This document shows, piece by piece, positions 12,708 to 15,718 of a DNA stretch of 64,000 nucleotides. The position numbers and the translations under genes are program-made. Source of the stretch: Candidatus Dormiibacterota bacterium (lineage in GTDB: Bacteria > Chloroflexota > Dormibacteria > Aeolococcales > Aeolococcaceae); the NCBI GenBank assembly GCA_963709585.1, contig CAVPXI010000023.1:49045-113044 (forward strand). Reading direction: 5' to 3'. The notes beneath the pieces are model-generated. The model was not told the origin of the DNA. It did no database searches and was given only the letters and a program-made list of their open reading frames with translations. How positions within the stretch are numbered: the stretch's first letter is position 1; the number at the start of each line of letters is the position of its first letter.

Positions 12708-14173
12708 CACCCCAGACGGGGAGTTAAAAGTACCTGAAACCGTGTGCTTACAAGCCGTGAGAGGGCTATGCCCCTAGTGGGAATGCCTGATTGCGTGCCT
12801 TTTGTAGAATGAGCCGGCGAGTTACTTCCATGTGGCGAGGTTAAGGGGTTGACACCCGGAGCCGTAGCGAAAGCGAGTTTGAATAGGGCGTGACCACCGT
12901 AATGGTGGTGGTAGTCGCATGGAGTAGACCCGAAACCGAGTGACCTATCCATGGTCAGGGTGAAGCGCGGGTAAGACCGCGTGGAAGCCCGAACCGACCC
13001 CAGTTGAAAATGCGGCGGATGAACTGTGGATAGCGGTGAAATGCCAATCGAACTCGGATATAGCTGGTTCTCCTCGAAATGCATTTAGGTGCAGCGTCGT
13101 CGATGGGTTTGTGGCCGGTAGAGCACTGAATGGGCTAGGGGCGATCACCTCGTTACCAAACCCAACCAAACTCCGAATGGCAACAAACTTTCCGGCGGCA
13201 GTGAGACGGTGGGGGCTAAGCTTCATCGTCGAAAGGGAAACAGCCCAGACCACCGGCTAAGGTCCCAAATCGCAAGCTAAGTGGAAAAGGATGTCACGGT
13301 GTCCAGACAACCAGGATGTGGGCTTAGAGGCAGCCACCATTTAAAGAGTGCGTAACAGCTCACTGGTCGAATGTCGTGGCGCCGACAATGATCGGGGCTC
13401 AAGCTTGCAACCGAAGCCGTGGATGGCCTTCCTTCACAGGAAGGTCGTGGTAGAGGAGCGTTCTGTTTGCTGCGAAGCCTGACCGTAAGGACGGGTGGAG
13501 CGGACAGAAGTGAGAATGCCGGCACAAGTAGCGAGAAACGCGTGAGAAACGTGTTCGCCGTAAACCTAAGGTTTCCTGGGCTACGTTAATCGACCCAGGG
13601 TCAGTCGGGACCTAAGCCGAGGCCGAAAGGCGTAGGCGATGGACAGTTGGTCAACATTCCAACACCGCCGCTGGTTCGTTATCAGCAATGGGGGAACGGG
13701 GAAGGATAGGCCTGACGGGGCGACGGTTGTCCCCGACGGAGCCTTGTAGGAGGTCAAGTAGGCAAATCCGCTTGACGCTAACTCCGAGAAGGATCCCAAG
13801 ACACTTTGTGTCGATGGGGCCGGTTCCATGCCTCCAAGAAAAGCCTCTAGCGAGAACCACGGCGCCCGTACCGCAGACCGACACAGGTAGGTGGGAAGAG
13901 GATTCCAAGGCGATCGAGGGAAACGTGGCTAAGGAACTCGGCAAAATGTCCCCGTAACTTCGGGAGAAGGGGAGCCCTTGGCGGTGATCCGATTTACTCG
14001 GTGAGCTGACGAGGGCCGCAGAGAAAAGGCCCATCCGACTGTTTACTAAAAACACAGGTCTCTGCTAAAGCGTAAGCTGACGTATAGGGGCTGACGCCTG
14101 CCCGGTGCCGGAAGGTTAAGTGGAGGAGTGCAAGCTCTGAAATGAAGCCCCGGTAAACGGCGGCCGTAACTAT

Positions 14174-14894
14174 CAACAATGACCGTGGTAGTTATAAAAT
14201 TCGGCTATATGCTGGAATACCCGTCCTTGAAAAGGTGAAGTATCCCGTGCTAGACGCCGCACTGGTCCTCATGGATTCAGTCGGCTCTGACAATGCAACG
14301 GGTGCGGGCAATCAGCAGGAAAGGCTCTCCATCGCAACCATCGCATCAGATCTAGGCAACTTCCTTGCGGGCTTCGCCCTCGGGGAGGGGAGCTTCATGA
14401 TTGTCTGTCGGCGGCGCGCCGACTATCGATGTGGATGGAAGGTTTCCGCAGCATTCAATGTCTCTCAGAATGACATCGCCCCGCTCGAGCTCTTTCGTAG
14501 GACGCTTGGGTGCGGAACGATTCGCATGGCTGGGAACGGTGGCTGGTACTTCGAGGTGAACAACCACAGAGACATCCAGGCCGCGGTGGTTCCGTTCTTC
14601 CGCCAGTATCCACTGGTGGGGAAGAAGCAAACCGACTTTGAGCTGTTCGCGGATGCGGTTTCGATACTGGCGCAGGCGCCACTCACCGACACCGCGTGTC
14701 GGGAGATTCTCGAGATTCGAGAGTCGCTCAACGGTGGTGGCAAACGCCGATACACCATGGAGAGAATCCTCAGAGACTATACGCCGAACCCTTCGCGTTG
14801 AAGGGATGAGATAGTCCGATCTCATGGGCGACCATGAGAGCCGGTAACCACCCCGGCCACTCCAGGTCTGATGCCTGGAGGAGCAACAACGATG
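14174..14894 (+). mobile_element. Group I intron at 23S L1917 with endonuclease ORF
   Basis: Exon join GTAACTAT|AACGGTCC; guide GTAGTTA pairs with TAACTAT (U.G wobble); P/Q/R/S present; terminal G at 14894. Confidence 0.94.
14235..14801 (+). CDS. Single-motif LAGLIDADG homing endonuclease (I-CreI-like); start uncertain
   Basis: FLAGFALGEGSF motif, FNVSQND, LGCGTI, VPFFRQYPL, KKQTDFELF. Confidence 0.9.
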   Translation: MKYPVLDAALVLMDSVGSDNATGAGNQQERLSIATIASDLGNFLAGFALGEGSFMIVCRRRADYRCGWKVSAAFNVSQNDIAPLELFRRTLGCGTIRMAGNGGWYFEVNNHRDIQAAVVPFFRQYPLVGKKQTDFELFADAVSILAQAPLTDTACREILEIRESLNGGGKRRYTMERILRDYTPNPSR

Positions 14895-14908
14895 AACGGT
14901 CCTAAGGT

Positions 14909-15167
14909 AGGAAAGTAGCTGCCTTAGTAAAATCTGGCTATATGCTGGAAAACCCGAGAATCCCGCGCTACTGCGTTCGCGCAGTGACAATGCGACGGGT
15001 GCGGACAATCAGCAGGAAAGGCTGCTCAGCGTGAGCAGAATCCTCAGAGACCATACGCCGGACGGTTCACGCGAACTGAAGATATGGTCCCATCTGCATG
15101 GCGACATGCAGGGGAGCGCACCGCTAGTGCTCTCCCGCTCGAGCAACGATGTTTGGGTAAGAGATTA
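14909..15167 (+). mobile_element. Group I intron at 23S L1931, no ORF, apparent terminal A
   Basis: Exon join CCTAAGGT|AGCGAAATT; guide GCT-GCCTTAG pairs with CTAAGGT and AGC; R TCAGAGACCAT and S AAGATATGGTCC with a compensatory change. Confidence 0.9.
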
Positions 15168-15187
15168 AGCGAAATTCCTTGTCGGGT

Positions 15188-15439
15188 AAGTGAATAAACG
15201 AGCCCGTACCGGCTAATATCGGTGAAGCCCGAACGACAGCGTGCGGCTGTGCGAGGGTGATACCGAGGGAAGTCGTCCAACCGAGTTGGATTGACCCTGT
15301 ATCGACTGAGGCAATGTGCCGAAGGTTGTCACCCGCATCACACCGGTGGTGCAAATCCTTGTGGCAGCCAATACGCCGGCAAAGTCTAACGAGACTTTGA
15401 AGTTATAGTCAGTGCCTCCAGTAATGGAGGGAAGACATG
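15188..15439 (+). mobile_element. Group I intron at 23S L1951 (IA-like core), no ORF
   Basis: Exon join GTCGGGT|AAGTTCCGACC; guide GCCCG pairs with CGGGT; core AATATCGGTGAA, GATACCGAG, GTATCGACTGA, AGTTATAGTCAG; terminal G. Confidence 0.88.
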
Positions 15440-15718
15440 AAGTTCCGACCCGCACGAATGGCGTAACGAGATGGGCGCTGTCTCGGCCACGTACTCGGCG
15501 AAACTGAAGTACCTGTGAAGATACAGGTTACCCGCAGCAGGACGGAAAGACCCCGTGGAGCTTTACTATAACTTGCCACTGAAATGGGGTCCAGCATGTA
15601 GAGGATAGCTGGGAGACTGTGAAGTCGGGCCGCTAGGTTCGGTGGAGTCAACCTTGGAATACCAGCCTTGCTGGATTTTATTTCTAACCGGCGCCGTTAT
15701 CCGGTGTCGGGACCGTGG

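Follow-up and report, generated by a model that had tools for sequence, protein, structure and literature searches.

The single 23S rRNA gene of an uncultured Candidatus Dormiibacterota bacterium from soil (GenBank assembly GCA_963709585.1) very probably carries three independent mobile group I introns, which occupy the homing sites L1917, L1931 and L1951 of one and the same gene. The gene lies in a stretch of 64,000 nucleotides (nt) of contig CAVPXI010000023.1, which was analyzed as a whole and is called the window here. Three inserts of the group I type were found within 35 bases of the 23S rRNA, in the conserved stretch from helix H69 to helix H71, and they leave two micro-exons of 14 nt and 20 nt between them. 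The layout of this region is ...GGCGGCCGTAACTAT, 721 nt, AACGGTCCTAAGGT, 259 nt, AGCGAAATTCCTTGTCGGGT, 252 nt, AAGTTCCGACC..., and the introns make up 1232 nt of the gene length of 4241 nt. In E. coli numbering, we take the insert sites to be after U1917, U1931 and U1951, with the pseudouridines psi1911/1915/1917, the 5-methyluridine m5U1939 and the 5-methylcytidine m5C1962 as anchors. The features of the locus are the following:

12147-16387, forward strand: 23S rRNA gene (Rfam RF02541, 2605.6 bits, model positions 1-2925)
14174-14894, forward strand: intron 1, group I intron at L1917, 721 nt, ends in G, without a P2
14235-14801, forward strand: single-motif LAGLIDADG homing endonuclease gene, 188 amino acids from a GTG start
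14895-14908, forward strand: 14-nt micro-exon AACGGTCCTAAGGT, E. coli 1918-1931, 3' strand of H69 and start of H70
14909-15167, forward strand: intron 2, group I intron at L1931, 259 nt, no open reading frame (ORF), last nucleotide A
15168-15187, forward strand: 20-nt micro-exon AGCGAAATTCCTTGTCGGGT, E. coli 1932-1951
15188-15439, forward strand: intron 3, group I intron at L1951, 252 nt, no ORF, ends in G

A blastn search with pieces of the gene against the whole genome revealed that the window contains the sole 23S copy of the assembly. Likewise, the Dormibacterota assembly (3.5 Mb, 24 contigs, 66% G+C) has one rRNA operon, which is the one in the window.

The intron boundaries could be fixed because congeners show empty sites at all three positions. 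The sequence TAT-AACGGTCCTAAGGT-AGCG is uninterrupted in G003 and G019, which have neither an L1917 nor an L1931 intron, and GGGT-AAGTTCC is uninterrupted in G005, G006, G010, G016, G020 and G021, in which the L1951 site is empty. For intron 1 no sliding of the boundary is possible. Intron 3 can slide by 0 to +4, and the placement after U1951 is the only one that gives a 5' U plus a terminal G. Intron 2 can slide by 0 to +2, and the placement after U1931 gives a U.G wobble yet a terminal A. The three introns that had been proposed in the sequence-only reading were thus borne out to the base by the sequence and the empty sites of the congeners, as were the coordinates of both micro-exons; only the start at 14161 had been set too early, as it falls in the upstream exon and the intron proper begins at 14174. 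The occupancy varies among the congeners at every site, which indicates that the introns were gained or lost separately. For example, in G023 the sites L1917 and L1951 are occupied and L1931 is empty, and the sister family has none of the three introns. In a phylum-wide pattern survey a fully empty site was found in 75 of 401 genomes; most of the other metagenome-assembled genomes (MAGs) were unclassifiable, because they had no 23S gene or sequence variants.

Against the group I intron model RF00028, intron 2 scored 66.7 bits and exceeded the gathering score of 50; intron 3 reached 29.8 bits (E 2.4e-5) and intron 1 reached 17.3 bits (E 0.13). The score of intron 1 is low because the alignment must jump an ORF insert of 434 nt in P6, and the intron was assigned to group I because it aligns with intron 2 and with other L1917 introns. 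When the core of intron 1 was aligned with the introns that congeners have at L1917 and L1931, compensatory changes were seen in P3, P5 and P7. An alignment of intron 2 with 14 ORF-less L1931 introns of other phyla yielded the helices P3, P4, P5, P5a/b, P6, P6a, P8 and P9, and changes on both sides of the pair were seen in 33 of the 50 predicted pairs of this family. When intron 3 was aligned with L1951 introns of other phyla, 15 of 32 pairs were compensatory. P7, which is a pseudoknot, was judged by eye and stood outside this pair scoring. Introns 1 and 2 are paralogs, with cores that are 80% (P3-P6) and 71% (P7-P9) identical. Intron 3 comes from another family; between P7 and P3' it contains a long insert of the P7.1/P7.2 type, which is typical of IA-type introns, and it lacks the P2 hairpin that is present in L1951 introns of other phyla.

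The endonuclease gene of intron 1 is situated in P6 and overlaps the P5-P6 and P7-P8 segments of the core. Its product matches Pfam PF00961 (LAGLIDADG_1) with 7.6e-19 and 68.9 bits over residues 44-141, and the closest match in the PDB was either half of the double-motif enzyme I-SmaMI (2e-34). The motif is LAGFALGEGSF, and its E aligns with the catalytic acid of I-SmaMI (GFIDAEGSF). An intact copy of the gene is also present in G011 and G016. For three species, the ratios of synonymous to nonsynonymous codon differences were 26:14, 31:13 and 36:15; the excess of synonymous differences indicates that the gene is under purifying selection. A further observation concerns the L1951 site, where the introns of G003 (L012) and G019 (L011) have lengths of 692 nt and 694 nt, respectively. 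The intron of G019 contains a complete LAGLIDADG frame of 179 amino acids with the motif YISGYVDGEGCF. In the intron of G003 the N-terminal part is out of frame, which points to a decaying endonuclease gene, and from the 252-nt L1951 intron of the window the gene has been lost wholly.

The distribution of the intron stack was analyzed by a scan of one genome per bacterial or archaeal species. The query consisted of a G, the 14-nt exon and non-native sequence, and it specifies about 15 bases only. At least 119 stretches matched, and 74 of those listed were 23S genes with an L1917 and an L1931 intron; the other 45 of the 119 listed matches were chance matches outside of rRNA genes and were set aside. 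Among the at least 74 genes listed, the L1951 site was empty in 43 and unscorable in 12, and 19 were scored as having an L1951 intron. One of them, L032, was rejected as a triple, because its locus is rearranged and its L1931 insert is composite. The co-occurrence of all three sites, for which the sequence-only reading had proposed a survey of genomes, turned out to be common: at least 18 genes in eight phyla (Pseudomonadota, Actinomycetota, Gemmatimonadota, Nitrospirota, Peregrinibacteriota, Bacillota, Chloroflexota and Armatimonadota) have the triple, and two further Dormibacterota triples (G011, G012) come on top of these. In a partial search of the literature, no text was found in which the three sites are named together for a single bacterial gene. 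The rejected gammaproteobacterial L032 is of interest in its own right. In its insert the 5' part of an L1951-type intron is joined to the 3' part of an L1931-type intron, and the 20-nt exon has been duplicated, its degenerate copy (AGCGAAATTCCTTGTCGAGT) lying inside the composite insert (600-1300, minus strand). This insert looks like the fossil of a recombination between neighboring introns.

Guides for both splice sites were found in the introns. In intron 1, P1 is formed by the exon sequence AACUAU (14168-14173, forward strand) and GUAGUU (14188-14193, forward strand), with the pair U1917.G at the cut, and the P10 guide GACCGU (14181-14186, forward strand) is exactly complementary to ACGGUC (14896-14901). 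A homologous P10 guide is present in nearly all of the 61 other L1917 introns examined among the matches listed. In intron 2, P1 is formed by CUAAGGU (14902-14908) and GCCUUAG (14921-14927, forward strand), with the U.G wobble at the splice site, and GCU (14918-14920, forward strand), which lies directly 5' of the P1 guide, pairs as P10 with AGC (15168-15170). In intron 3, CGGGU (15183-15187) pairs with GCCCG (15202-15206) including a terminal U.G, and P10 is weak, with 2 bp at best. Local folding revealed that every P1 is a hairpin; the most stable one is that of intron 2 with 9 bp, -13 kcal/mol and a z of -2.8. The split of the first micro-exon (AACGGTC/CTAAGGT) between GACCGT at 14181 and GCCTTAG at 14921, which had been described before, was confirmed, i.e., both pairings are present and do not overlap. 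The footprints of the intron 1 P10 and the intron 2 P1 abut, and A14895 stays unpaired. On the 20-nt exon, 12 unpaired nucleotides separate the two footprints, and this exon is unchanged in 62 of the 67 other genomes with an L1931 intron among the matches listed.

We infer from the sequence that all three introns are removed, and the same applies to the order of their removal. Splicing is argued for indirectly by the single rRNA operon, the selected ribozyme folds and the canonical micro-exons. Each ribozyme would locate its own splice sites by its internal guide: P1 would bind the 5-7 nt at the end of the upstream exon and place the U.G at the cut, and P10 would bind the first downstream nucleotides. 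As the sites are 14 nt and 20 nt apart and the footprints comprise 3-7 nt, the guides could tile the micro-exons without competing. Each intron would most likely be removable in any order, and the removal probably proceeds from 5' to 3' as the RNA is made. The canonical removal of intron 2 is predicted to join ...CCUAAGGU to AGCGAAAUU..., and the predicted spliced 23S rRNA reads ...GTAACTAT-AACGGTCCTAAGGT-AGCGAAATTCCTTGTCGGGT-AAGTTCC. Only intron 1 has retained an endonuclease gene, and introns 2 and 3 are ORF-less derivatives that would persist by splicing and that probably spread through co-conversion together with the homing of their neighbor.

Three points weigh against this scheme. First, intron 3 has a P1 of just 5 bp and almost no P10. 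Second, the second splicing step of intron 2 may be inefficient or unusual, because the intron ends in A and not in G. Third, the P3 strand of intron 1 can form 6 of 6 pairs (one of them a wobble) with P3' of intron 2, and a hybrid fold of the two introns that skips the 14-nt exon is thus conceivable; the different guides of the two introns are what should prevent it.

The second point was analyzed further. The terminal nucleotide of nearly all group I introns is a G, and introns 1 and 3 also have this terminal guanosine (omega G). Placed after U1931, intron 2 ends in ...GAGAUUA. A UA terminus was found in all 14 Dormibacterota L1931 introns. Among the matches listed, 43 of the 67 bacterial L1931 introns end in G and 23 do not (16 with A, 6 with C and 1 with U), and in one intron the end was masked by N, while all 18 L1951 introns listed end in G. 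No change in P7 that would compensate for the terminal A was found; the G-binding pair is G-C in introns that end in A as well as in those that end in G. Closely related gammaproteobacterial L1931 introns were also observed that differ solely in their tails (...AACAUGGCCG versus ...AACAUGGAUC).

One explanation is that intron 2 is not spliced canonically, i.e., that the terminal A blocks ligation and that the insert is retained, or that fragmentation or exon skipping occurs. The A terminus of all 14 Dormibacterota L1931 introns fits this explanation, as does the unaltered G-C pair in P7, because nothing compensates for the A. There is also a precedent at the same site, namely the L1931 intron of Simkania negevensis, which was reported under the title 'An unspliced group I intron in 23S rRNA...' (via PMC1995217). 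Nevertheless, we regard this explanation as unlikely. Compensatory changes have preserved the whole fold, and both P1 and P10 pair perfectly; this would be hard to explain for an idle ribozyme. In addition, the terminal pyrimidine-A is conserved while its neighbors vary, which suggests that it is a used 3' splice site. In the 23S rRNA gene of Coxiella, going by the title of the report, one intron lacks the terminal G in a gene with self-splicing introns. Position 1931 presumably lies between H69 and H71 at the subunit interface, and an insert of 259 nt there should be harmful.

Alternatively, intron 2 could be situated two bases downstream, after G1933, so that it would start with GAAAG and end with ...TTAAG and thus with a terminal G. 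Intron 2 and the next exon both start with AG, and so the DNA cannot tell the two placements apart. Moreover, among the matches listed an AG start was found in 12 of the 16 L1931 introns that end in A, in comparison to only 5 of 44 that end in G. However, the shifted cut would follow a G-C pair and not the U.G wobble, which is exactly at U1931. The introns L035, L055, L105 and L109 end in A but do not start with AG, and in these cases no shift yields a terminal G. The distance from a conserved GUAA motif to the intron end also argues against the shift, as it is 7 nt in the introns ending in A when placed at U1931 and 7-8 nt in those ending in G, but would be 9 nt after the shift. Taken together, the three observations, i.e., the U.G at U1931, the A-ending introns that cannot be shifted and the GUAA spacing, favor a true omega A, as judged from the sequences, and the downstream placement is quite unlikely. 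Tentatively, and with less than an even chance in our estimate, the widespread L1931 introns that do not end in G either ligate their exons without an omega G or are not cleanly spliced; if they are not cleanly spliced, the cells would have to cope with 23S rRNA that retains the insert, is fragmented or lacks an exon.

The sequence-only reading had also concluded that three introns together impose constraints on the splicing order. In this case the three introns would be a coupled system, in which the use of guides on shared micro-exons forces a fixed order. Indeed, two different ribozymes use 13 of the 14 nt of the first micro-exon between them, so that two cores must dock side by side on one stretch of 13 bp, and exon skipping has been reported for the two-intron 23S rRNA of Coxiella and for the similar tandem introns of phage Twort (as described in PMC10136302). 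But the footprints are disjoint, every P1 folds locally into a hairpin, the target of the intron 1 P10 is the same with or without intron 2 being present, and the target of the intron 2 P1 likewise exists with or without intron 1. Furthermore, among the matches listed, other genomes with the same pair of introns have footprints that share as many as 4-7 nt or lie as far as 5 nt apart. In the 61 genomes listed for which both guides were located, the gap between the P10 footprint of L1917 and the P1 footprint of L1931 ranged from -7 to +5 nt, and a gap of 0 was the commonest single value (13 of 61). This spread ruled out that the abutment of the guides is a selected feature; as it is not conserved, it has not been tuned by selection, and the exact abutment in the window is explained by typical footprints (4-7 nt plus 7 nt) filling an exon of 14 nt. 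The claim of order constraints is thus unsupported, and a coupled system is distinctly improbable. The disjoint footprints and the local P1 hairpins imply that each intron finds its sites whatever the state of its neighbors, and most likely the sequence forces no order on three independent ribozymes. By analogy, the hazard that is suggested by the literature would be exon skipping between similar tandem introns and not a forced order.

An artefact or chimera of the assembly was ruled out, because G011 and one contig of G012 contain the same three introns with 94% identity and the window lies inside a contig of 261 kb. The MAG G012 contains two versions of the region: all three introns are present in C13:1-1301, and only the L1951 intron is present in C11:107336-107736. 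Either this organism has two rRNA operons that differ in their introns, or two strains were binned together.

Separate trees were calculated for the P3-P6 half and the P7-P9 half of the introns; these trees were quick and based on few columns. In the tree for P3-P6, those L1917 introns of congeners that have no ORF nest in the clade of their own L1931 neighbors (21 rows; Shimodaira-Hasegawa-like approximate likelihood ratio test, SH-aLRT, 96). In the P7-P9 tree, these mosaic introns (L006-L010, from G021, G020, G005, G006 and G010) cluster with the window's L1917 intron, which contains the endonuclease gene, and with further L1917 introns (SH-aLRT 99). A mosaic L1917 intron and the L1931 intron of the same gene, 14 nt downstream, are 89-92% identical in P3-P6 and 62-65% identical in P7-P9. 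In other phyla, the 5' tree has the two introns of L109 as a same-genome sister pair (SH-aLRT 95), and the same-genome pairs of L091 and L037 each fall inside one clade (SH-aLRT 98 and 97, respectively). The simplest reading of these sequence comparisons would be repeated gene conversion between paralogous introns that are 14 bp apart, which is offered as a lead. Such a gene conversion would delete the endonuclease gene of the L1917 intron in one step. The L1917 intron of L009 (G006) was found to begin with AACGTTGACGTGGAATGCTGCTTAGTAAAATCC, and it has the L1931-like sequence GCTGC-TTAG where the guide GTAGTT was expected; either this intron may have a defective P1, or the tract of recombination may reach as far as the guide.

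The remainder of the rRNA operon contains a relative of these introns, and the neighboring features are:

9161-10674: 16S rRNA gene
11767-11840 and 11856-11928: two tRNA genes
16551-16667: 5S rRNA gene

A fourth group I intron of 782 nt (10628-11409; Rfam 55.4 bits) is situated in the 16S rRNA after U1498, in the context GAAGUCGU, intron, AACAAGGUAGCC. Its last nucleotide is G, and the region of P8 contains a long insert. Pairing was seen between its guide GCGAC and GUCGU and between TGTT and AACA. The core strings TAAAATTTGGCTGTATGCTGGG, AATCAGCAGGGAAG, CCTCAGAGACTACACGCC and GAAGATATAGTCC show that this intron and those at L1917 and L1931 form one family.

Among published cases, the closest is the 23S rRNA gene of Synechococcus sp. 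C9 with its introns at L1917, L1931 and L2593 (Haugen et al. 2007, PMC1995217). Both organisms have L1917 and L1931 introns together and hence a 14-nt exon, and in both cases introns lack P2 and single-motif LAGLIDADG frames run into the core. In contrast, all Synechococcus introns have kept their endonuclease genes and the third intron is at the distant site L2593, while in the 23S rRNA gene of the window the third site is L1951, an ORF is missing from two of the three introns, and the L1931 intron ends in A. Of the precedents that had been named before, the L1917 or L1931 introns of Thermotoga (Table 1 of PMC1995217) and the L1917 plus L1951 introns of Coxiella were correct, but the list was incomplete, as it missed Synechococcus sp. 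C9 (PMC1995217) and the hot spots of the candidate phyla radiation (CPR; PMC11270868). In Coxiella burnetii, Cbu.L1917 and Cbu.L1951 flank an exon of 34 bp according to the title of Raghavan et al. 2007; the introns are assigned to the subgroups IB2 and IA3 and skipping of the 34-nt exon is reported, as cited in PMC10136302. To the extent that these sources describe them, the Coxiella introns resemble those of the window in that two self-splicing introns at shared sites enclose a micro-exon, one intron lacks the terminal G, and the intron at L1951 is an IA-type intron that has additional P7 helices. They differ in the lack of an L1931 intron, so that one exon of 34 nt is found instead of exons of 14 nt and 20 nt.

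In CPR/Patescibacteria, group I inserts with LAGLIDADG_1 genes are concentrated at 23S positions 1917, 1931 and 1952, and many rRNA genes contain several inserts (Tsurumaki et al. 2024, PMC11270868); the window organism, in contrast, belongs to Dormibacterota and not to CPR. For the orf142 introns of Staphylococcus phage Twort and for engineered tandem Tetrahymena introns (Ueda et al. 2023, PMC10136302) it was shown that similar tandem introns can form one large hybrid ribozyme and skip the exon. Also in these cases a very short exon of 23-24 nt lies between two group I introns that are closely related, but the genes are protein-coding or reporter genes, whereas here skipping would destroy the rRNA and the guides are fully different. 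The L1931 intron of Simkania negevensis (Everett et al. 1999, as cited in PMC1995217) shares the insertion site in a bacterial 23S rRNA gene, but according to this citation it contains an endonuclease gene and was reported to be unspliced.

Taken together, published precedents exist for the sites, for the intron families, for the type of endonuclease and for the exon of 14 nt, and the triple is present in at least 18 other species from eight phyla, so that the stack itself adds little. Its value lies in a well-resolved natural series within one genus, in which the sites are occupied or empty in every combination and the introns are found with and without endonuclease genes. The genus is therefore suited for the study of intron gain, gene loss and recombination between neighboring homing introns, of how skipping is avoided between paralogous ribozymes 14 nt apart, and of whether a group I intron can do without a terminal G. 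The question of the omega A and the recombination between introns are the parts that are worth following up.

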